A stretch of 64,000 nt of DNA from an uncultured virus (IMG/VR IMGVR_UViG_3300037419_001523) (Duplodnaviria > Heunggongvirae > Uroviricota > Caudoviricetes), in the IMG/VR virus record IMGVR_UViG_3300037419_001523. One strand, written 5' to 3'. This document shows positions 3,498 to 22,479 of this stretch, piece by piece. Made by a program: the position numbers and the translations under genes. Within the stretch, counting starts at the first letter, position 1. Each line of letters opens with the position of its first letter. The notes beneath the pieces were generated by a model that was given only the letters and a program-made list of their open reading frames with translations, was not told where the DNA came from and did not search any database.

Positions 3498-3526
3498 ATT
3501 ATAAGCCCATAAACAAACAAAGTCAA
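3498..3526 (-). promoter_or_regulatory. Near-consensus sigma-A promoter
   Basis: TTGACT-17 nt-TATAAT; the spacer ends in TTTATGGGCT. Confidence 0.75.
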
Positions 3527-9866: not shown

Positions 9867-12140
9867 CTACGTACCACTTTCCCTCCATTTATTTATCTCA
9901 TTTTCATCAACGTTAATTTCATAACGTTTATTTGGTAATTGAATTAACCACTCATCATCCACAAGTTCATGAATTAAAGCATGGACTTTATTCATAGCAA
10001 TACCCATCAAATCTTGTAAATGAGAAACACGTAATTCTCCTGTTGTAGCAATAATCCTTTTCAATTTATCAATTGGTTTTTCAACTTTAACCTCCTCTAA
10101 TTCACCACCATCCACCACAACATCCTTAAACAATTCCTTCAAACTATCATATATATCTTCTTCATCTTCCTCAACTAAAGTTAATATCGTTGACTGAAAA
10201 CGTTCATATTCCTTTAACTGCCCTTCTAGTCTACACACTCCATCTCCTTTACCTAACAAGTTATAAGGAATCCCTTTTCCAAATACAGTTGTATAATCTG
10301 ATGAAGTTTTCAATCTAAAACTAATTGCTGAAGGTAAATTACTTTTCAACACACTTGTAACAATATCTGCTAAAGGTTTCTGTGTGCAAATGATTAAATG
10401 TATACCTGCTGCCCTAGCCATTTGCCCTAATCGTACTAAATGATCTTCTACATTCGCATTAACCATTACTAAATCTGCATATTCATCTACTGCAACAACA
10501 ATATATGGAATCTTAACTTCATTATTTTTGTTGTAGGTTGCTATGTTTCTTACTCCACTTTTAGCGAATAATTCATATCTCTTTTCCATTTCATTTACTA
10601 ATGAAGATAACAATGCATCCGCCTTTTTCATATCTGTGATTATCTTTTTAACTTGAGGAAATCCTTCAAAGAATGTGTACTCAACCTGTTTAGGATCAAC
10701 TAAGTATAATGCTAATTCATCAGGTGGAACATTCAATAACAAACTGAGTAAGAGTAAATTTACGAATACAGATTTACCTGAACCTGTTGCTCCTGTAACT
10801 AATAAATGTCTTAATTCGGCTAAGTCACTAAACATTAATCCTCCATTCACATTTTCCCCAATGATAAAAGGGAGGGGGTATTTTTCCTTGTGCTGTTGAA
10901 ATTCCTCTGATTCTAAGATGCCCCTAAAATATACGATTCCTCTTTCTTCCAATGGTACAAAAACATTAATCGTATCAGGTTTATCACCAATCTCTACACT
11001 CACTCCTTCATTACCTAAAGCAGCTTTAATATCAGTTAACTTTTTTGTAATAGATGTATACGTAATTTCTGGTGGAATGACCATCTGAACTTTTAACAAA
11101 CTTGCTCCTTGATGAAGTTCACTGACTTTTAACGGTTTCTGTACAATTCCAACCCTTTTAAACGCTTGATTTATTAATTGTGCTTTAGATTGATCAACTT
11201 CCACATTCTTATTTTCACTCTTAGGCATTAATTGAATTGCTTTTTGCAATAGCATACTGTCTTCCAAACTCTTAACTACACTTTGTTGCTTGATTGGTTT
11301 CTCTAATTCAACCTTTGTAACAGTAGAAGGTTTTTCATTGCATAAAACACTAAAAATCTCACTTTCTGATAACATTTGATTCACTAAATCAACCTGAAAC
11401 TCCCTATTTTCAATCAATTTGATAAAATTACGCTTATTTTTTACCTTTTTTACCCTAAATTCATTAAAAAGTTGTAGTTTTTGTAGGTTTTTCTCCATAT
11501 TTTCAACAAAATGATTCACATATTTCTGTTCATAAACAATAAATCTTGATTCAAAACGATAATTTTGACTGAGTATCTTCTGCTCCATTTCCTCAATCTG
11601 ATCTCGTTTAACTTGGAAATTGTTTAGTTTAGTCAGTATGTTAATAACTTTCTCTTGTAACTTGATAGTAAACTTATTCCCTAATGGAGTATCATTACCA
11701 GAAAGATAACTAGTATACTGCTGAATTACATTTTCTCGCCAATTATCTAATCTTTTGCATAATAACACTTGAGAAAACACTGTTGCATTAGGAAAATTAG
11801 TAACACAATTAAATAAATCAATAAATTGTTTTGTATCTAGTGGCATGAATAATGGTTTTTCTAAAACTAACTCAAATACAGTCAATTCCTTTACATCTTC
11901 ACTCTTGAACTCCCATTTTTTATCTGTGACAATTAAATTTTGTTTATCAAAGGAGGGGGTAATTAAATATTTCTCCCTATAGTCAGGCATACTTAATTGC
12001 TCCAGACAATATACCCCTTCCCCAATAAATCGTGATTGTAATATTTGATTGATTAAGTTGGAACTGAATCCATCTATTTCATACACATTTGATTTTTCAT
12101 TGACTAAAGGTGTTTTGTTGATCATTCGTGAAAGTGTCAT
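9867..12140 (-). CDS. FtsK/SpoIIIE-family DNA translocase with an atypical soluble N-terminal domain and a gamma-like C-terminal wHTH
   Basis: Walker A GATGSGKS, Walker B VVAVDEYADL, ARAAGIHLIICTQKP and LLGKGD motifs; C-terminal VSHLQDLMGIAMNKVHALIHEL. No obvious N-terminal TM segments. Confidence 0.9.
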   Translation of the reverse strand: MTLSRMINKTPLVNEKSNVYEIDGFSSNLINQILQSRFIGEGVYCLEQLSMPDYREKYLITPSFDKQNLIVTDKKWEFKSEDVKELTVFELVLEKPLFMPLDTKQFIDLFNCVTNFPNATVFSQVLLCKRLDNWRENVIQQYTSYLSGNDTPLGNKFTIKLQEKVINILTKLNNFQVKRDQIEEMEQKILSQNYRFESRFIVYEQKYVNHFVENMEKNLQKLQLFNEFRVKKVKNKRNFIKLIENREFQVDLVNQMLSESEIFSVLCNEKPSTVTKVELEKPIKQQSVVKSLEDSMLLQKAIQLMPKSENKNVEVDQSKAQLINQAFKRVGIVQKPLKVSELHQGASLLKVQMVIPPEITYTSITKKLTDIKAALGNEGVSVEIGDKPDTINVFVPLEERGIVYFRGILESEEFQQHKEKYPLPFIIGENVNGGLMFSDLAELRHLLVTGATGSGKSVFVNLLLLSLLLNVPPDELALYLVDPKQVEYTFFEGFPQVKKIITDMKKADALLSSLVNEMEKRYELFAKSGVRNIATYNKNNEVKIPYIVVAVDEYADLVMVNANVEDHLVRLGQMARAAGIHLIICTQKPLADIVTSVLKSNLPSAISFRLKTSSDYTTVFGKGIPYNLLGKGDGVCRLEGQLKEYERFQSTILTLVEEDEEDIYDSLKELFKDVVVDGGELEEVKVEKPIDKLKRIIATTGELRVSHLQDLMGIAMNKVHALIHELVDDEWLIQLPNKRYEINVDENEINKWRESGT

Positions 12141-12362: not shown

Positions 12363-13652
12363 TCATAATAAATCACCTACATATCTTCTTTTGTGATGCT
12401 TACGTAAAGAAGCAACTTTTTTCATTTTGTCTTCTGCTCTCTTCTTTAAAAATTGAGTTGGTCTAAAATTTTTAAAAGTTAATATATCCCAAGTCTCTTT
12501 AAGTGTATTTTTACCTTCATCATACTGATCAAAAACATCTGATTTATCTCCTGTCATTCTTGTGACGAAATTAGGGGGATTTAATAATCGTAAAAGTCCA
12601 CCTGCTACAATCAATAACTTAATGATTAACGTAAATAATCCTCCCTGTATCCCTTGAGTGCTAAAGATGAATATTCCCATTAATAAAATGAATACTGAGT
12701 AAACTAATTGCACTAATGATAAAGATTTAACTTTACTCCACCACAGATTGAAATAATGCCTATGTCTATCGAATACCCAAGTAGATAATGCTAATGGACT
12801 AATACAAGCAAGACACATCAAGTCCCACCAACGCTTACCTGCCTGAAAGCAAACTGGAATCAATAATGCGATGGATGCTAAATCAAACAGAATAACAATT
12901 CCTGTATCGAACCAACTGATTGTTTGATTAGATATAAATCCATTATCATTTGTTCCATTGAATATACTTATTTTTGTGATAGCATTGGATAATTTATTGA
13001 GATAATCAAAACTTGTTTCAAACGCAAAAGGTAAAAATCCTGAAACTCCTGCAACTATCGCCCATCTTTTAATGATTTTATTGAATGGAGTATGATCTTT
13101 TTTGAACATCTGCATAAAGGCTTCAAATACAGTTAACATGGTTACTATCGTAATGGAAATAAGTGCAAAAGTGAGGGAAGTATTTTTCAGGTACGGATTG
13201 TTGAATATGAACAAAGGGGTTTGGAGGACAATATTAGCCATGAAGTGATAAATATGAGTGAGTAAGTCTGCTGTTAGTTTTGGAATGGAAAATGGAAGGT
13301 TATTAAACCAATCTAATCCTTTTATTACATATCCTGTGATACCTTCTAAGCTGTGAATTAATCCTTTAGGTATATCCGTTAATGATAATCCTGTTTTTGA
13401 ATTAGCAACGTGTGTAAGCACCCCTTTTTTCTGAAATACAACTTCACCAATTGTAGCAGCTTTAACACTTTTAAATACGAATAGTAAACTTGCTGTTGAT
13501 ACAGTTGCAAATGGAAATATAATTTTCTTTAGAATGGGGATACCCACCAACCGTTTCCACTGAAGAATAAATTTGCTACGTAATATATCAAGAAAACTAG
13601 AGGGACTGCTATTAGCACTTGAACGAGTCCTCGAACTATGTCTTTCGCCCAT
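12363..13652 (-). CDS. Polytopic membrane protein, TrbL/VirB6-like (start uncertain, probably near 13550)
   Basis: About 6-7 hydrophobic segments; LACISPLALSTWVF...FNLWWSKV..LSLVQLVYS resembles the TrbL/VirB6 core. Confidence 0.65.
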   Translation of the reverse strand: MGERHSSRTRSSANSSPSSFLDILRSKFILQWKRLVGIPILKKIIFPFATVSTASLLFVFKSVKAATIGEVVFQKKGVLTHVANSKTGLSLTDIPKGLIHSLEGITGYVIKGLDWFNNLPFSIPKLTADLLTHIYHFMANIVLQTPLFIFNNPYLKNTSLTFALISITIVTMLTVFEAFMQMFKKDHTPFNKIIKRWAIVAGVSGFLPFAFETSFDYLNKLSNAITKISIFNGTNDNGFISNQTISWFDTGIVILFDLASIALLIPVCFQAGKRWWDLMCLACISPLALSTWVFDRHRHYFNLWWSKVKSLSLVQLVYSVFILLMGIFIFSTQGIQGGLFTLIIKLLIVAGGLLRLLNPPNFVTRMTGDKSDVFDQYDEGKNTLKETWDILTFKNFRPTQFLKKRAEDKMKKVASLRKHHKRRYVGDLL

Positions 13653-14077
13653 TGTGTCATTCCATTGATTCTGAACATCCTCCCTACTGCATTGGCTACT
13701 AGAAGTATTGCTGCCAATATTACTGCTGCTCCTACTGATATTTTCAGAAGTGTTAATAGAAGTTCTAATAACTCTGGTGGCATTCCTGTTGCTGTTTGTG
13801 GAAGAGTTGTTGTTCCCACTGGTAGGGACGAGTTTGCCATTGATCTTAATGGTAATATCAGAAAACTGCTCGCTGTCATTAGAAATGTCTGAATTTTTCG
13901 TTTGTGTTCTTTTCTTTCTTTCTTGTTTAGCTTTTTCACCTCCTTTAGTAAAGTGGGGGAATGAAAATTTACATTGTTATCAATGATGACTTTATCGTTG
14001 TTAATTGTGAAAGGTTTAAAAAAATTATACTTAACTAATGTGTCTTGATTTTTCACGGAGAGATTCACCAACACCAT
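13529..14077 (-). CDS. TrbC/VirB2 pilin-like membrane protein
   Basis: Long leader followed by two hydrophobic helices separated by a short charged loop (GRMFRINGMTQWAKDIVRGL); GGAGGGG RBS. Confidence 0.55.
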   Translation of the reverse strand: MVLVNLSVKNQDTLVKYNFFKPFTINNDKVIIDNNVNFHSPTLLKEVKKLNKKERKEHKRKIQTFLMTASSFLILPLRSMANSSLPVGTTTLPQTATGMPPELLELLLTLLKISVGAAVILAAILLVANAVGRMFRINGMTQWAKDIVRGLVQVLIAVPLVFLIYYVANLFFSGNGWWVSPF

Positions 14078-14210
14078 TTTCGTCCCCTCCCTTACTCTTT
14101 TTACCTAATTTAAATTCATGAAAGAATTGAAGACCAAGTGCAGATGCAATTCCGATTCCACCCATAGTTGCAAGTTTTAATGTAGCTATAATAATAAATG
14201 AAGTTCCCAT
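14031..14210 (-). CDS. 59-aa membrane peptide, first gene of the membrane/FtsK operon
   Basis: AGGAGG RBS; MGTSFIIIATLKLATMGGIGIASALGLQFFHEFK...; below the ORF-track cutoff. Confidence 0.65.
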   Translation of the reverse strand: MGTSFIIIATLKLATMGGIGIASALGLQFFHEFKLGKKSKGGDENGVGESLREKSRHIS

Positions 14211-14270: not shown

Positions 14271-14301
14271 ATTGTATGACAGTTGAAATTTGTACTATTA
14301 C
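14271..14301 (-). promoter_or_regulatory. sigma-E-like (mother-cell sporulation) promoter
   Basis: gtaATA-17 nt-CATACAAT; the -10 element equals the sigE consensus cATAcanT. Confidence 0.5.
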
Positions 14302-14344
14302 ATCTTTTTTCATGTAATTTTTCAACTTTATAGTTAAAAAAAAA

Positions 14345-14779
14345 TTACTCCTCCTCTCTATAAAGAACTTTATTCATTGGAGGACATCCAACCGCAATCC
14401 AGATTCTTAAAAAATAATCTAATGATGGCTGAGAACGGTTAGTTAAAATAATACTTATGTTTCCAGCATCGATTTTTGTTTTCTCTGCAAGGTCTTTTTG
14501 TTTCCATCCTAAATAAGTGATGTATTCTTTAAACTTATTTTTAAGCCTATAGGGTTTACCAAGATCATCAAGACCAGATAATTCCTCTCCGTTCTTTAAT
14601 TTATTTAGATAAGCATTAACGCAACCTGTAACAAAATCTTCTATATTTAAATCGATGGGCTTACCTTTTCTTTTAGCTTTATCATTGCGTAAATTTTGGT
14701 ATTGTACGTATTCGTTTATTTCATTAAAAGTTTCTTTTTTAAATTTAATTGTTAATTCCACATACTCCTGCTTTTTCAT
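14345..14779 (-). CDS. Transcriptional regulator with C-terminal XRE HTH and possible N-terminal ribbon-helix-helix
   Basis: LKNKFKEY...KQKDLAEKTKIDAGNISIILTNRSQPSLD; AAGGAGG RBS. Confidence 0.8.
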   Translation of the reverse strand: MKKQEYVELTIKFKKETFNEINEYVQYQNLRNDKAKRKGKPIDLNIEDFVTGCVNAYLNKLKNGEELSGLDDLGKPYRLKNKFKEYITYLGWKQKDLAEKTKIDAGNISIILTNRSQPSLDYFLRIWIAVGCPPMNKVLYREEE

Positions 14780-14809
14780 GTATAAGAACCTCCTTAACGT
14801 GGGATATTA
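14780..14809 (+). promoter_or_regulatory. sigma-F/G-like (forespore) promoter
   Basis: GTATA-15 nt-TGGGATATTA versus the sigF consensus GYWTA-15-GGNRAYANTW. Confidence 0.45.
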
Positions 14810-14848
14810 GTATCAGACACAGCAAACAACGAACTAGGAGTGATACTA

Positions 14849-14947
14849 ATGTTAAATATACAATTATTAAAAAGAGACGAAGATGACTTAAATGATACAT
14901 TAGATGAAATTTTTGATAACTCAGATAGAAATGACAATAGAAGATAA
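14849..14947 (+). CDS. 32-aa acidic peptide
   Basis: AGGAGTG RBS; MLNIQLLKRDEDDLNDTLDEIFDNSDRNDNRR*. Confidence 0.45.
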   Translation: MLNIQLLKRDEDDLNDTLDEIFDNSDRNDNRR

Positions 14948-14960
14948 AGGGTGATTATAG

Positions 14961-15119
14961 ATGCAACAACTAGGCTCATGGTTTACAACAAATACAAAGT
15001 CAGCTTGGGAAGAACGTTTAGATTATATGAGCAATTATGCTATTGAGAAAACTGGCATGAACAGAAATGAATTGAAGAAGTTGCTTACTTATTTGGATGA
15101 ACAGGGTATCATACGGTAA
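14961..15119 (+). CDS. 52-aa helical protein, antisense-overlapping the M23 gene 3' end
   Basis: AAAGGGTG RBS; MQQLGSWFTTNTKSAWEERLDYMSNYAIEKTGMNRNELKKLLTYLDEQGIIR*. Confidence 0.55.
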   Translation: MQQLGSWFTTNTKSAWEERLDYMSNYAIEKTGMNRNELKKLLTYLDEQGIIR

Positions 15120-15608
15120 GTGAATTAATTGCATTTTTAAATCACTTAGTACATTCATATGTTGTTGCATGTAATCAAAGAAGTTAAGTTTTGTTGTTTC
15201 AGGAATATGTTGTACGAATTGTTTTACATTCATATTTTGAATATCGTTAATATATGGAGACGGATCGAGAAATTGTCCTTCTCCATTTTTTAATCCGAAG
15301 TGTAAATGACTACCTGTAGAAAATCCTGTATTTCCTGCATGACCTAACAAGTCACCTGCTTGAACACGTTGACCATTATGAACTGAGAAATCATTCAAGT
15401 GTCCATAAATAGCAGTTTTATTATCACCATCCCATTTAACTAAAACGGTTTTTCCTGCATTTACATTTCCGAAATCTTTGATGGTCACAACACCATCTTT
15501 AACTGAACGAATCGGCTCACCTATTTCCATCTTAAAATCAATTCCAGAATGACCATGAGAACGGAAAGATTCTTGTTGACCAAATCGTGATGTAATTTTG
15601 TAACTCAT
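15018..15608 (-). CDS. M23/LytM-family peptidoglycan endopeptidase
   Basis: HSGID, YGHL and GNTGFSTGSHLHF zinc motifs are intact; no signal peptide; hydrophobic/amphipathic C-terminus. Confidence 0.9.
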   Translation of the reverse strand: MSYKITSRFGQQESFRSHGHSGIDFKMEIGEPIRSVKDGVVTIKDFGNVNAGKTVLVKWDGDNKTAIYGHLNDFSVHNGQRVQAGDLLGHAGNTGFSTGSHLHFGLKNGEGQFLDPSPYINDIQNMNVKQFVQHIPETTKLNFFDYMQQHMNVLSDLKMQLIHLPYDTLFIQISKQLLQFISVHASFLNSIIAHII

Positions 15609-15660
15609 AATGACTTCCCTTTCATGTGATATTTTTTGAGTAAAGTAAATTCTAAGGTTT

Positions 15661-15787
15661 GTTACTGAAAATTGATAAGTGGTAAAAAGTCGTTACTCGG
15701 TAACGTAGTAATTACTGATGGCTCAGTAACGTAATGAGTAACCAGTTAGACAATCTATCAGTAACGAATGAGTAACAAGTCAGTAAC
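15661..15787. repeat. AGTAAC/GTTACT iteron array (tubC centromere-like)
   Basis: AGTAAC at 15725, 15737, 15760, 15771 and 15782 (spacing 12, 23, 11, 11); inverted GTTACT at 15661 and 15692; variants at 15699, 15707 and 15711. It lies directly downstream of tubZ. Confidence 0.75.
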
Positions 15788-15810
15788 CAGAAATTGCTAT
15801 ATGGATAAAC

Positions 15811-16908
15811 TTATTTTTGATATTTAGATAAGATACTAGACAAGGCTTTCTTGTCTTTTTGTTTTGGTCGAATTTGTAAATTAGATGATTTGTAAGATAT
15901 ACCGTGACCGCTTGAGAGTATATTTGAAAGTGATTCAGACTCGCTAATGGTTTTGTATTCAATTTGTTTTAATCGTTCTGTATTGAATTCTAAGCCAGTT
16001 AGAATTGTATATACGTCACCTTTATTTTCGTGATAGTATCCTTCAAATGAATCCAAGGTTGGATTTTTAAAATCATTTAATATGTTTTGCGGATTTATGA
16101 ATGTCATCAATCCTTCTTGACCATTAAAAATTAGTCCAAATCGGATAATCTTTGTATACGATGGTTTGGTAAAAATAGACTTTTGCCATGAATGTTTAAT
16201 GGCATCTGTTACAGATTCCTTTGACAATTGAATACCATCATTTTGATTGGTGATATTTGTATAAGCTAAAGTAGAAAATCCTGAAGTTTTAAACAGAGTA
16301 AGCAAATCCTTTTGATCTAAATTTCCATTGTGCGATTGTTTGTCTGTATGTTCAATTATAGAATCAATGATGTTGTAAAAAGTTTGATTTACTCTTTTAT
16401 ACAGTTCATTCTTCCCTTCAATTTTTACTTGTTCATTATCAATTGGTAAGATACAAATATTTAATTCACTGAGCTGCTTCAAACATTCTAACGTATTTAT
16501 CTGATTCGCTATAGGTTCTGACAAACTCGGTAAAATTGGTACGGCTACAATCGTTTTGTCACCTAATTCATTCGCCAATATTTCAAGGAACAATGGACTA
16601 ATTCCACTTCCAGTTCCTCCTGCCGTAGAGAATGTAATAAATATTAATTGAACGGAGGGTTGCGAAAAGTTATCTTTAATATAAGAAACAACAATTTCCC
16701 AATTATTCTGCATTAATGAAACTGCTAAATTTCTATCTCTACCTACCCCTTCTGAACCATGTAAACGTAATTTCAAGTGACTTTCAATATGAATACATGT
16801 ATCTAAGTCTTTTTGAGATGAATTTATTATTCCACTTAAATATCCATTTTGAGAGAATAAATCTGCAATTTGTGATCCACATTGACCTAATCCAATACAC
16901 GCAAACAT
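15811..16908 (-). CDS. tubZ: TubZ-like tubulin/FtsZ GTPase (type III partition motor)
   Basis: IGLGQCGSQIA, GSEGVGRD, tubulin signature AGGTGSG, IDN and NLDQKD T7 loop; basic C-terminal tail. Confidence 0.85.
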   Translation of the reverse strand: MFACIGLGQCGSQIADLFSQNGYLSGIINSSQKDLDTCIHIESHLKLRLHGSEGVGRDRNLAVSLMQNNWEIVVSYIKDNFSQPSVQLIFITFSTAGGTGSGISPLFLEILANELGDKTIVAVPILPSLSEPIANQINTLECLKQLSELNICILPIDNEQVKIEGKNELYKRVNQTFYNIIDSIIEHTDKQSHNGNLDQKDLLTLFKTSGFSTLAYTNITNQNDGIQLSKESVTDAIKHSWQKSIFTKPSYTKIIRFGLIFNGQEGLMTFINPQNILNDFKNPTLDSFEGYYHENKGDVYTILTGLEFNTERLKQIEYKTISESESLSNILSSGHGISYKSSNLQIRPKQKDKKALSSILSKYQK

Positions 16909-17189
16909 TACACTTCAACTCCTTCGGTGATTTTTTGAATTGCCATTACTCCATAATCAGTCAAATAGAAATGGTGAAACCTATTTAATTTGGTTACTTC
17001 AATAAACATAAGTAATTCTAATCGTTCGATTACTTTTCTTAGTGCATACTCACCTATTCCTGATTCTGTTGTGATTTGTGACTTATCTAATGACTGAAAT
17101 TTATTTATCGAATCCTTGGACAATAGAATATTCATGATTAATAAATCATCTCTACTTAGTCGCTTAACAATTGCATCAAAGTGATTCAT
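16908..17189 (-). CDS. tubR: TubR-like winged-helix adaptor
   Basis: 93-aa wHTH (GIGEYALRKVIERLELLMFIE...FYLTDYG) overlapping the tubZ start by 1 nt. Confidence 0.65.
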   Translation of the reverse strand: MNHFDAIVKRLSRDDLLIMNILLSKDSINKFQSLDKSQITTESGIGEYALRKVIERLELLMFIEVTKLNRFHHFYLTDYGVMAIQKITEGVEV

Positions 17190-17258
17190 TAATTCTTCCT
17201 CCTTGTTGTTTATTTCAAAGTTGTTGTAGAATTGATGCTCTTTGTCGTTGATTAATAC

Positions 17259-17289
17259 ACTATATGAACATACTGTTTGTACTGATTCA
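17259..17289 (-). promoter_or_regulatory. sigma-E/K-like promoter upstream of tubRZ
   Basis: TGAATCAGTACAAACAGTATGTT-CATATAGT; shares AGTACAAA and CATAYART with the 14271-14301 promoter. Confidence 0.4.
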
Positions 17290-17353: not shown

Positions 17354-17382
17354 TTGACTAATCAAAATTAATTTGATATATT
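17354..17382 (+). promoter_or_regulatory. Extended -10 sigma-A promoter, duplicated at 38804-38832
   Basis: TTGACT-17-TATATT with TG; 28/29 nt identical to 38804-38832. Confidence 0.7.
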
Positions 17383-18704: not shown

Positions 18705-21700
18705 TTGACAATTGCTTTAGAAAAACAGGTTTACATCTACTCAGTGGATACCTCTAGTTTCTATAATGAAAACGAACAGAAAATACATAAGAAATTGTTA
18801 AAATCCTATAGATATAGAGATCACTTAAAGAAACTGGATGGAAATGTTAGTAAGCATAAGAAGTACATAAGCGAACGAATAAGTTCATTAAAAAATAAAC
18901 TAATATTAAACATAAATAAAAATAGTGATATTAGACATTTAAGAAAAGATTCATTAAAGAAAAGCAACGTAATCTCATTATTTGATTCTGTGCTTACTAG
19001 AGTGTTGAAAATTGAGCAAAATTCATTATCAGAAGACATCTTTGTTGTTCAGGCATATTACTTTCAAGTATTAGAAAACATAATTAAGAATGGTTTTATA
19101 CATAATGGTGAGAAATACATATATCTAACGAGTTCAGCCGGACAGATTAGAACAAAACGATCTATCTTCATAAAAGAGTCACTGTGGAATCAACATAAAG
19201 AAACTCTAATGTGTGGATTGTCTGTTGAAGATATTAACACTCAAGGTGGAGTGAATATCAATAAGTATCAAGCTTACCTTGCTCTATCCAATAGTGCTAC
19301 AGATGAGTGGAAGAATTTCAACATCCATAGAAGTATTGTGGTTGATGATTTAGAAACAACTGTACATAGTTTGGTAGATTATATTGACCGTGAAACTTAT
19401 AAGATTACTAGGCAGGAAATGGATATTCCAATTGAGCATACGGATGGTTGTGGAATGATACTTCCAAAAAAGTCTAAGAAAAGCTTCATGTGTCGTTTAC
19501 CTTGGCTCAAAGGTTTATTAGTCCCATTCCCTTTTGATAAGTTTGCTGAAGAATATGATTCGTTTGTTGTGAAGGATATCTATGGTAAGGAATGGGATAT
19601 TGTGAAAGACAATATTGAAGTAATTTTCACTAAATCTCAGTTTAAAATGTGGAAATATTACCAAGATTGGAATGACTACAAAGATAAATTTGTAAAACAT
19701 AGCTGTCAAGCTGCTAAATTGAACGAGGAAGACGTTTCTGCTGATGCTAACCTTAATTATCAGATGATACAAACGTTGACAGATATGACTGATGAAGAAT
19801 TAACAAAAATAAGTCAAAGTACCATTGAAGACATTTTAAAAATTGGCAGTGATAAAGAAACCATGCTTCGTATATTAGGTGCTACTGAAACGAACAGAAG
19901 AAAAAACTACTTTCAACAAGCATTAAGTATGTATCCTGAATTACTGAATGATGAGCATTCTAAGCAAGTTATTAAGGATAAAAAGAAAAGGTTAATCAAA
20001 GAAGCTCGTGCTGGGAAGTTAAATGTTAAAGGGAAATATACCTTCCTAGTTCCTGATTTGTTTGCATTTTGTGAAAGATTATTTCTTAGAATCGAACAAC
20101 CAAAGGGATTACTTGCTAAAGGTGATGTATATTGTGATTTGTTTGATGAAGGTAAGGTTAATTGCTTACGTGCGCCTCATCTCTTCCGTGAGCATGGGGT
20201 TCGAAATAATGTATTAGATGAAGGAAAAGCAAAATGGTTTATCACTCGTGGGGTATACACTAGCATTCATGATCCAATTAGTAAGATATTGCAATTTGAT
20301 AATGATGGGGATAAATCCTTAGTTGTCAGTGACAAGACATTTGTTGAAGTCGCAGAACGAAATATGAAAGGTATTGTACCTTTGTATTATGAAATGGCTA
20401 AAGCCCCTGCTGAACAAATTAACAGTGAAGATATTTATAAAAGTTTAGTTTCTGCATACAAGGCTAACATTGGTGAGATTAGCAATAACATAACTAAGAT
20501 ATGGAACAGTGACAATGTTAATTTGGATGTTATCAAATGGCTGTGTATGGAAAATAATTTCACAATTGATTAAATTCTTAGTCCCTCCATATAGTGATAT
20601 ATGGATGTGCAGTCGGTGAACCTGTAAACACAGGGTGTTTGGTTAACGTTTAGTGGCAGTAGGAAATGACTGTTAATAACCAAGCTAACAGGGAAAATCT
20701 AAGTAATACACTTCACATTTTTTATATAATATATTATTAATCAAGGAGGTGATAATTATGAAGTTCATCAATGAGGATCAATCTAAAAATCTATGTGGAA
20801 TTTATAAAATAACTCAGATTAGTAATGGTCGTATTTACATTGGTCAAACAAAAATGAGATTTATAAAGAGATATTGGCATCATGTATGGAAATTGAATGA
20901 TGGAAGTCATGATAATAACTTTCTGCAAAATGCTTGGAATAAATACGGAGAAAGCGATTTTATGTTTGAAGTGGTTGAAATTATGAATCGTGATGAAAAT
21001 ATGAACAAACAAGAAATTATGTACATTGAGAAATACGATACTTATCATAATGGATTCAATATGACGCTCGGTGGTGAAGGTAAAAAAGGCACTCCGATGT
21101 CAGAACAAACAAAAGAAATTGTAGGTAGAAAAAACAGAATCCATATGTTAGGTAAAAAACACACCGAAGAAACAAAAAGAAAAATGAGTTTGTCTAGTCA
21201 TAGACGTAAAATCACTTCGGAACATGCTGAAAATTTAAGAAAATCCAGATTAGGAAGTAAACATAGTGAATCCTCTAAGCAGAAAATGAAGGAAGCGAAA
21301 TTAGGAGTCGGTTCAGCAATCAATGAATCTCAGGCTTTTGAAATAAAGAATAGATTAATAAATGGTGATAGGATTATAGATATTGCAAACGAATTAGACA
21401 TTGAATATCACAATGTTAAATCAATTCTTCAAGAAAAAGTATGGACTCATATTAAGGTAGATGGATGGGGTGATTTTATTGTTGAATATAAAAAACGGAA
21501 AAAAGAATCTTTGACAGATGACCAAGTAAGAGAAATTAGAAATTTAATAGACAAAGGATATTCTGCTCCTGAAATATCAAAATTATGTGATATTGGAGTA
21601 TCAGTTGTTTATGGTATCAAACAAAACCGAACTTATAAAAATGTGAAGTAAGACAAATAAGAGTGTATTATATGACAATCCTGTGCCAAGTCTCTAATTA

Positions 21701-22479
21701 GAGAAAGGTGCAACGACCATCCTGAAATGGAGTAGGATCGGGGTGAAACTCCTCTTTCCGAAGTGCCGACCAACTATTGCGTAAATAGTTGATGATATGG
21801 TCTATTCCCTTCAAATATAGCGAAAGCTAGGGTATAAAAGTATGCTAAAACTCTTTTCATGCCAACTAGACCAGAAGATGTCAATCAAATTATTTCACAG
21901 TACATAAAAGCGAAAGTACCTCATTTTTTCATTTATGCAAAGGATAAGGAAGAAAAGAATGTTGAAAAATTGAATGACAGTGTGGTAAATAAACTTAATT
22001 ACCTTGTTCCTAACAAACCTATTCAATTCAAAAAAATATTAGGTAAATTAAATTATAAAATGCTCATGAAAAACAAAAAAGTTTCAACTGATGAAAGCAT
22101 TATTGTGACTTTTGAGAAACTAGATAAAAGTAAAAGATGGTTGATTAAATCTAAAGAAAAAAGTGAATCAAATGAAACATTATTTATATACAAATATATA
22201 AGAGAAGAATTATTAAAAACCCATGATGATATTAATTATGTTGTAGATGTGTTAGTTAAATATTTATATATTAAAAAGAGTAGCAGAAAAGAAACGTTGT
22301 GGAAATCATTTGGTGATATTTTATTTGAGAATTTACAGTATAACCTAGAAAACACTAAACAATGTGAATCATGTGGTTCAAGAATTGATATTAAATCTAA
22401 CAAAACGAAATATTGCAATGACTGCGCTAAATATATAAAAAACGAACAAAACAAATTATACTATCATTTAGGAAAATAG
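18705..22479 (+). CDS. yonO: YonO-like single-subunit DNA-dependent RNA polymerase, two exons (18705-20570 + 21841-22479, about 834 aa)
   Basis: [25 protein letters not shown] and catalytic QFDNDGD motifs. The exons join in frame as [19 protein letters not shown]-terminal CxxC...CxxC zinc finger. Confidence 0.88.
20571..21840 (+). mobile_element. Group I intron in the RNA polymerase gene
   Basis: Exon ends in U and intron ends in G. P1 GAU/UAA pairs with UUAGUC giving a U.G at the splice site. Core-like segments CAAGCTAACAGGGAAA, AATCCTGTGCCAAG, GTGCAACGACCATC and GATATGGTCTA. Confidence 0.88.
20749..21651 (+). CDS. Intron-encoded GIY-YIG homing endonuclease with NUMOD3 repeats and C-terminal HTHs
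   Basis: CGIYKI...IYIGQT, GFN and [10 protein letters not shown] / [10 protein letters not shown] repeats. Confidence 0.92.
   Translation: MIIMKFINEDQSKNLCGIYKITQISNGRIYIGQTKMRFIKRYWHHVWKLNDGSHDNNFLQNAWNKYGESDFMFEVVEIMNRDENMNKQEIMYIEKYDTYHNGFNMTLGGEGKKGTPMSEQTKEIVGRKNRIHMLGKKHTEETKRKMSLSSHRRKITSEHAENLRKSRLGSKHSESSKQKMKEAKLGVGSAINESQAFEIKNRLINGDRIIDIANELDIEYHNVKSILQEKVWTHIKVDGWGDFIVEYKKRKKESLTDDQVREIRNLIDKGYSAPEISKLCDIGVSVVYGIKQNRTYKNVK

Follow-up and report, generated by a model that had tools for sequence, protein, structure and literature searches.

In which compartment of a sporulating host, and when, would the partition and DNA translocase genes of an uncultured phage be expressed? The question is raised by IMG/VR record IMGVR_UViG_3300037419_001523, a complete phage genome of 137,145 base pairs (bp) with terminal repeats (G000), whose first 64,000 nucleotides (nt) form the window analyzed here. 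The phage, of the Bacillus family, is SPbeta-like, because the full genome encodes an RdRP-family polymerase, a serine recombinase, two sigma-70-like genes and a SASP-like gene (G000:108293-108478, identified from its translation). A leftward cassette in the window has the order tubR, tubZ, repeat array, M23 peptidase gene, XRE gene, small membrane gene, pilin-like gene, TrbL-like gene and ftsK. An earlier note on this DNA had proposed that tubRZ and the membrane/FtsK operon each start with a sigE-like promoter, that both promoters share the element AGTACAAA, and that the module is switched on in the mother cell after polar septation. Our analysis points, with reasonable probability, to two predicted mother-cell promoters, dependent on sigE, possibly sigK, and on SpoIIID, that would serve the TubRZ and the pilin/TrbL/FtsK operons in mid-sporulation, and to an operon on the opposite strand that would be read in the forespore.

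Two mother-cell promoter candidates and their shared box

14271..14301, minus strand: site 1, predicted sigE(/sigK) promoter of the small-membrane/pilin-like/TrbL-like/FtsK operon (-35 TAATAGT, 15 nt, -10 CATACAAT)
14288..14297, minus strand: predicted SpoIIID-like box TAGTACAAAT at site 1, ACA 12 nt before the -10, as in the sigK promoter of B. subtilis and in SPbeta sprB
17259..17289, minus strand: site 2, predicted sigE(/sigK) promoter of tubR-tubZ (poor -35 GAATCAG, 15 nt, -10 CATATAGT)
17275..17284, minus strand: predicted SpoIIID-like box CAGTACAAAC at site 2, ACA 11 nt before the -10, the register of B. subtilis spoIVCA

Both strings on which the claim was built are present on the minus strand (14301-14271 and 17289-17259), 60 nt (site 1) and 69 nt (site 2) before the first start codon. 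Their -10 boxes, CATACAAT and CATATAGT, match the published sigE -10 CATANANT, and the spacer of 15 nt at both sites lies inside the published range of 13-15 nt and is also that of spoIVCA, spoVK and gerM (PMC517825, Table S2). Two features weigh against a sigE reading: the -35 of site 2 has ATC instead of ATA and scores -6.8 bits against a consensus near TCATATT (site 1: 1.0 bit), and a 15-nt spacer is found in just 3/80 sites of our host sigE training set. Promoters of the sigK type, with a CAC- or ACA-type -35 located 16-17 nt from CATA, were not found at either site, the best scores being 4.1 and 4.3 bits with a matrix trained on yabG alone; sigK may be an alternative or dual reader of these promoters.

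The plain consensus counts were dropped as support, as neither AGTACAAA nor the spaced consensus is enriched. The 8-mer is present eight times in the window with 5.06 expected (16/100 shuffles have at least eight), and the genome contains 41 copies of ATA-N16-18-CATAnnnT with 45.8 expected, so that a single match is uninformative. The distance from AGTACAAA to CATA differs, being 10 nt at site 1 and 9 nt at site 2, and the pair AGTACAAA-N9/10-CATA, a definition made post hoc, is found in the genome only at these two places (0.15 expected). The statement that neither operon has a well-spaced sigA promoter, in contrast to clear ones elsewhere (TTGACT-17-TATAAT near 3498 and a 10/12 site with TG at 17354), was borne out. 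Near the starts, the sole leftward candidates are two 9/12 matches: one at 17425-17397, some 200 nt ahead of tubR, and one at 14239-14212, which overlies the ribosome-binding site.

For the 8-mer common to both sites, a putative SpoIIID box (GTACAA) is the best explanation. Footprinted SpoIIID boxes read TAGAACAAGC, AGGGACAAGC, TTGGACAAAC and similar (PMC517825), and both sites contain a 10-bp box with an ACA core resembling TAGAACAAGC and TTGGACAAAC. The footprinted boxes of the SpoIIID-activated spoIVCA and sigK promoters are situated 11 and 12 nt before the -10 (computed from Table S2, PMC517825), and these host promoters share with the phage sites the forward box abutting the -35, the ACA at 11/12 nt, the long spacer and the weak -35; they differ in being footprinted host genes, whereas the boxes of the elements are predicted and often carry T for the purine before ACA (T 0.22 in host boxes). 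A box matrix derived from 39 host promoters (22/30 sigK, 17/28 spoIID) gives 4.5 bits for site 1, 9.0 bits for site 2 and up to 11.8 bits in relatives. This matrix was combined with the host sigE matrix (80 training sites, last 50 nt of the regions excluded) over a box-to-minus-10 range of 10-12 nt taken from the element data. The composite ranks site 1 second, a promoter before an excision-factor candidate (see below) fifth and site 2 thirty-sixth of 274,022, and it exceeds the 95th percentile of 179 upstream regions in 10/13 site-1 regions. Host sigE or sigK together with SpoIIID would thus very probably read site 1 and probably also site 2; no spoIIID gene was found in the phage itself. With this reading of the box, expression is likely to fall in mid-sporulation. 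Of the timing proposed earlier, the mother-cell type is supported by conservation and the sprB match described below, and the plain sigE timing directly after polar septation is less likely to be right.

Conservation, the sprB promoter and the weaker tubR half

The layout AT[AC]-box-11/12 nt-[CA]ATA is conserved in divergent phages and plasmids, recurs before excision-factor candidates and matches SPbeta sprB. An unseeded Gibbs motif search of the matching intergenic regions of 10 relatives, with the window excluded (40 starts; 10 starts for shuffled sets), returned a motif in register in 9/10 relatives with an information content of 20.7, compared with 14.3-15.4 in 12 shuffled sets. Across the 137-kb genome this relative-trained motif scores highest at site 1 (24.9 bits) and second at G000:71904 (21.7 bits), followed by 20.7 and 16.8 bits. 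The position-weight-matrix scan and the comparison of homologous operons, which had been suggested as a check, therefore find site 1 kept across relatives and ranked first in the genome. The strict layout AT[AC]-R-D-ACAR-N11-MATA, composed after the sites were known, is present in 12/15 site-1 regions including those of two plasmids (shuffles: mean 0.02, maximum 1), and the spacer columns of the aligned regions are merely 26% identical (0.26). It is missing in L007, L171 and L172; in L007 the box lies, by eye, 21 nt before the -10. It has to be held against these counts that the patterns and the 10-12 nt window between box and -10 were picked after the sites had been seen. Duplicates were left out, with a single representative retained for each type (L003, L087, L100, L103 and nearly identical loci of the B. 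velezensis type); L198, L207 and one spoIIR locus were left out as well, and L088 and L036 have no site-1 intergenic region and stand outside the site-1 counts.

Only four strict motifs occur in the full genome, which argues against a reading by a phage sigma factor in a programme unrelated to compartments. The two sigma-70-like genes (G000 74592-75835) would be the candidates: both match sigma families, one of them weakly sporulation sigmas, and in phage Bc431v3 sigF/G-like genes adjoin the cassette. On the other hand, the 221-amino-acid (aa) factor is unmatched in motif-bearing SPbeta and SIOphi and in 2/3 plasmids (1/5 weak), the 193-aa factor is unmatched in those five (0/5, searched without positive control), and sprB is mother-cell-specific (PMC4191935). 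We regard this explanation as very improbable.

The second genome hit (G000:71904, minus strand, outside the window) places the motif before a 44-aa open reading frame (ORF; G000:71702-71904, equal to L394:2703-2905) located between a YotM homologue (52%) and the serine recombinase gene, of which it lies directly upstream. SPbeta sprB likewise directly follows yotM. The 44-aa protein gave no alignment with SprB, a point against its equation with that protein, so its role rests on position, by which it is a likely excision-factor candidate. Fourteen end stretches of seven related elements yielded two motif matches above 20 bits (23.0 and 22.4), again before small ORFs at prophage ends, and the motif thus precedes excision-factor candidates of three prophages. 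The other two motif-bearing prophages apparently interrupt genes that we take from their translations to be spoVK and kamA. The serine recombinase gene next to the 44-aa ORF has its own extended -10-like TGnTACAAT, and just past it, at L394:622-661 (G000 about 69620-69660), loose contig ends of read runs X3 and X4 cluster at a possible attachment site.

For SPbeta sprB itself, transcription has been reported to begin 20 nt ahead of the start codon, fluorescence of a green fluorescent protein fusion to be restricted to the mother cell and activity to be mid to late, and SpoIIID, GerR or GerE was suspected as an additional factor (PMC4191935). The promoter (L412:2129-2166) resembles site 1 in its perfect sigE/sigK -10 (CATATAAT), its imperfect -35 and its SpoIIID-like box AGACAAAC, whose ACA lies 12 nt before the -10, exactly in the register of site 1. 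It differs in driving excision only, whereas in the phage studied here the layout also heads the partition and FtsK operons. The box AGACAAAC is not identified in the accessible part of Abe et al. 2014 (PMC4191935), where SpoIIID is untested. It names SpoIIID as the likely missing factor at the sprB promoter and predicts a direct requirement for SpoIIID in SPbeta excision during sporulation.

Would SpoIIID activate or repress? On balance we favor activation. The same promoters could be read with the opposite sign: sigE would start transcription after polar septation and SpoIIID would shut it off, leaving a brief early pulse while the septum is open for transport, which comes closest to the timing of the earlier note. 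Boxes overlapping the promoter usually go along with repression (PMC517825), which weighs against activation; repressed host promoters offer models in spoIIIAA, with a forward box lying nearer, in the spacer at 6-8 nt (8/28), and in spoIID, with a reversed box (16/28 hosts); and L004, L086 and L116 have a good -35 without need for an activator. However, the register observed is that of activated spoIVCA and sigK and not that of repressed spoIID and spoIIIA, the -35 is poor at site 2 and in L008, L036 and L040, the activity of sprB is mid to late (PMC4191935), and the parM promoters of Bastillevirinae show the host sigK layout. An early pulse appears rather unlikely to us. The idea that 12 nt is the usual layout of host sigK promoters mostly failed: the box lies 21-22 nt before the -10, one helical turn further, in 21/30 host sigK promoters, and just 2/30 have the 12-nt register, which also has to be set against our reading of the sites.

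The claim of a sigE-like promoter before both operons is sustained for site 1 by conservation (12/15), the excision-factor promoters and the match to sprB; the tubRZ half is weaker. Several results count against it. The box pattern was found in 7/20 tubR leaders (shuffles: mean 3.5, maximum 8) and the plain sigE pattern in 10/20 (mean 5.0, maximum 11), neither being significant; an unseeded search of these leaders gave ATC...GAT repeats and no promoter; and by eye the leaders of L081, L085, L086 and L012 resemble sigA promoters. With the composite, 9/19 FtsK-linked relatives score above the 95th percentile of the background, as do 4/9 relatives that have no FtsK nearby. No difference between the two groups emerges (p=0.23), which counts against the claim as well, and the suggestion that the promoter is missing where tubRZ stands without FtsK found no support. 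Site 2 might thus be a chance look-alike, with tubRZ expressed vegetatively under autoregulation by TubR and only site 1 being real. The weak leader statistics, the sigA-like leaders of several relatives and the autorepression of known TubR systems (PMC6009700) would all agree with this; the window's own tubR leader, in contrast, has no good sigA promoter, site 2 holds rank 36 of 274,022, and scores of 14-23 bits are reached at this position in L002, L004, L007, L022 and L089. We consider a chance look-alike unlikely and a sporulation-timed TubZ likely in this phage, though no rule for the clade; high-scoring sigE promoters with box are found in L022, L032 and L089. The ATC...GAT motifs recur with a period of about 10 bp between promoter and ribosome-binding site in L004, L012, L038, L048, L081 and L110 and are a candidate TubR operator.

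Some further loci show where this TubZ clade resides. In L022, L032, L048, L082 and L085 it adjoins other large ATPase modules downstream of tubZ (790-930 aa, or FtsK plus a second gene); the gene paired with FtsK in some of them is presumably replication-relaxation-like, the module names being our assumption. SPbeta-like prophages of the B. subtilis group (L012, L021, L028) keep tubRZ without an FtsK cassette within 7 kb, and L012 has a box remnant with decayed -10 and a sigA-like site closer to the gene.

The cassette and its opposite-strand operon

16908..17189, minus strand: TubR-like gene, 93 aa, directly upstream of tubZ in relatives too and named by position
15811..16908, minus strand: TubZ-like tubulin/FtsZ GTPase, 365 aa (PF00091, E 3.5e-16; 27% to c-st TubZ)
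15658..15788, no strand: AGTAAC repeat array downstream of tubZ; short-repeat arrays are likewise placed in relatives
15018..15608, minus strand: M23 peptidase (PF01551, E 9.4e-25; HxxxD and HxH motifs from the translation)
14345..14779, minus strand: XRE-type helix-turn-helix (HTH) regulator, 144 aa, weak HTH matches
14031..14210, minus strand: small membrane protein, 59 aa, first gene behind site 1
13529..14077, minus strand: pilin (TrbC/VirB2)-like membrane protein (phrog_3528; the same-position gene of a Niallia plasmid is annotated TrbC/VirB2)
12363..13652, minus strand: TrbL/VirB6-like polytopic membrane protein (Atlas feature score 0.93 to the TrbL cluster; phrog_3750)
9867..12140, minus strand: FtsK/SpoIIIE-type DNA translocase, 757 aa (PF01580, E 3.8e-46)

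The tubulin/FtsZ GTPase gene with a small putative DNA-binding gene upstream corresponds to the gene pair of type III partition (TubZRC) systems, and the TubR-like protein had no family match in profile searches. As in the TubZRC systems of c-st and pBtoxis, the order is tubR-tubZ, the GTPase is tubulin-like and repeats lie near the operon (PMC6009700). There the centromere is upstream of tubR, whereas in this phage the main array follows tubZ and no clear repeat array was seen upstream of tubR in the window; the accessible part of PMC6009700 names no sporulation sigma factor for those systems, and TubY, unlike in the comparison systems, was not identified in the cassette. The array may be centromere-like or an FtsK loading site. 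Its unit varies among elements (GTTAC, ATTACC, TTTCCC, GTTCCC), which suggests that it co-varies with a binding protein. By eye, no promoter motif was apparent upstream of the M23 and XRE genes.

The XRE protein, which has an additional N-terminal part looking ribbon-helix-helix-like by eye, gives rise to another explanation of the box, namely as half of a TTGT-N6-ACAA operator for this regulator, with the resemblance to sigE promoters partly incidental. Site 1 always follows the XRE gene, the exact TTGT-N6-ACAA is present in 3/12 aligned sites and TGT in 7/12, and neither the XRE gene nor site 1 is present in the Bastillevirinae cassettes inspected. Yet the left arm is missing beside the box of the four excision-factor promoters, SPbeta yielded no XRE homologue (0/5 records, in a search without positive control), the -10 is kept at a fixed distance, and T before GT occurs in 33/80 host sigE promoters, accounting for most of the left arm. 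This explanation is improbable.

The scope of the earlier note proved incomplete, as a forespore-type promoter on the other strand had been missed:

14779..14810, plus strand: predicted forespore (sigG/sigF-type) promoter GTATA-18-GATATTA, overlapping the XRE start codon (sigG matrix 8.3 bits, rank 108)
14849..14947, plus strand: acidic ORF, 32 aa, first gene of the forespore-type operon; similar ORF with ribosome-binding site in 8/22 relatives
14961..15119, plus strand: three-helix protein, 52 aa, second gene; similar ORF in 20/22 relatives; model pLDDT 82; convergent overlap with the 3' end of the M23 gene

At this position a sigF/sigG pattern (G[TA]ATA as -35 with GGnnAnAnTR or (c/g)ATAnTA as -10, the sigF consensus being taken as general background) is found in 23/26 elements, compared with 4/179 other genes that share this start-codon context. 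In eight elements the -35 has moved away from the start codon, so that the pattern is not accounted for by translation signals. What speaks against it is the window copy, which misses the pattern by one base (TG for GG) and scores -3.6 on a sigF matrix trained on spoIIR only; it fits sigG (8.3 bits) and not the sigF pattern. The record of Bc431v3 already carries a SigG-like promoter annotation at the opposite-strand gene. The predicted promoter very probably works with sigF or sigG. The operon comprises one or two genes in the elements, the last encoding the 52-aa protein, which had no match in Pfam, PHROG, NCBIfam, Atlas or Foldseek. The SASP-like gene of the phage has no high-scoring sigG promoter (rank 1297).

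A possible route of phage DNA into the forespore

Together, these predictions would allow the following sequence of events. In the mother cell, host sigE or sigK with SpoIIID would turn on the filament, the wall hydrolase, the components of the pore and the pump, alongside excision, and the small protein would be made in the forespore only when a copy of the element is present there. The filament could then carry element DNA that is not integrated to the membranes of the forespore, M23 might open the septal wall, and FtsK would pump the DNA into the forespore via the pilin/TrbL-type pore, the forespore-made 52-aa protein indicating prior occupancy by a copy or setting the direction. As one chain, from the filament via M23 to FtsK loading with an occupancy or direction signal, this is a tentative proposal. 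One objection is that the spore of an SPbeta-type lysogen keeps the prophage anyway, rendering rescue redundant there (PMC4191935); the gain would therefore fall to new infections, lytic phages and plasmids.

The same objection favors the main rival to forespore loading, in which the regulation is as proposed and the circle, once excised or replicated, is exported by the cassette to neighboring cells in the manner of Streptomyces TraB, or engulfment is altered. TrbL-like and pilin-like proteins are parts of conjugation machines, and an excision factor under the same promoter would provide a free circle in the mother cell simultaneously. A conserved forespore-type promoter within the cassette is, however, hard to reconcile with outward transfer, and the cassette is kept by strictly lytic phages: its FtsK was found in 160 phage records (E<=1e-60), mostly Bastillevirinae by name. 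Plasmids with the cassette are, moreover, typed non-mobilizable (12/12). We judge export to be unlikely. Transfer by Streptomyces TraB/clt likewise uses an FtsK-type pump and a repeat array, with no relaxase seen; to this the present cassette adds pilin-like, TrbL-like, M23 and filament parts and sporulation promoters for two compartments.

Nine of these phage records were inspected and contain a ParM-like partition gene in place of tubZ, ParM/ParR standing in for TubZR in Bastillevirinae. Of the seven whose parM leader was covered, six have a box 21-23 nt before a sigE-type -10 (shuffles: mean 0.79), which is the register of 21/30 host sigK promoters. The cassette is rare in chromosomes (2/401 genomes), and scans of viral contigs with single proteins gave no matches, alignments being needed. 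With even more reserve than for the chain of events, we suggest that a two-compartment cassette is common to temperate phages of the SPbeta type, lytic Bastillevirinae and large plasmids of Bacillaceae, and that it could act as a within-cell conjugation machine, loading the DNA of the element into the forespore once septation has occurred and so making phage-bearing spores. Its SpoIIID-gated mother-cell half would consist of the interchangeable TubZ or ParM, M23, the pilin/TrbL pore and FtsK, and its forespore half of one small protein.

Mother-cell promoters on SPbeta-like elements are already known, for excision. For the SpoIIIE homologues of Bastille-like phages, which belong to the same FtsK family and gene cassette (PMC4528723, PMC3601020), a role in sporulation has been guessed, with no experiment linking them to sporulation according to the accessible part of PMC4528723; neither a mother-cell promoter nor a SpoIIID box is described in the accessible parts of these two reports. 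In the literature searched, subscription papers and bioRxiv supplements being mostly outside reach, we found no description of a phage partition and FtsK cassette under two-compartment control gated by SpoIIID. How phage DNA enters spores is a question under study, and a 2026 paper attributes entry to host-like segregation sequences and Spo0A arrest (PMC12991052); the cassette offers a testable route. Cultured phages such as SIOphi and phiNIT1 make its promoters open to exact and inexpensive testing in B. subtilis, and if the transfer step is true, lytic phages used in biocontrol would be naturally equipped to persist in spores.

Two minor observations concern a plasmid and the phage polymerase. 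The plasmid L445 (CP053689.1), labelled Arthrobacter, a label that may be wrong, has the cassette together with promoters of both types and a SASP gene. The RdRP-family polymerase of the phage, which we take to be YonO-like, is encoded in pieces (window 18705-22479) around an endonuclease-like ORF (20749-21651), an arrangement that suggests introns.

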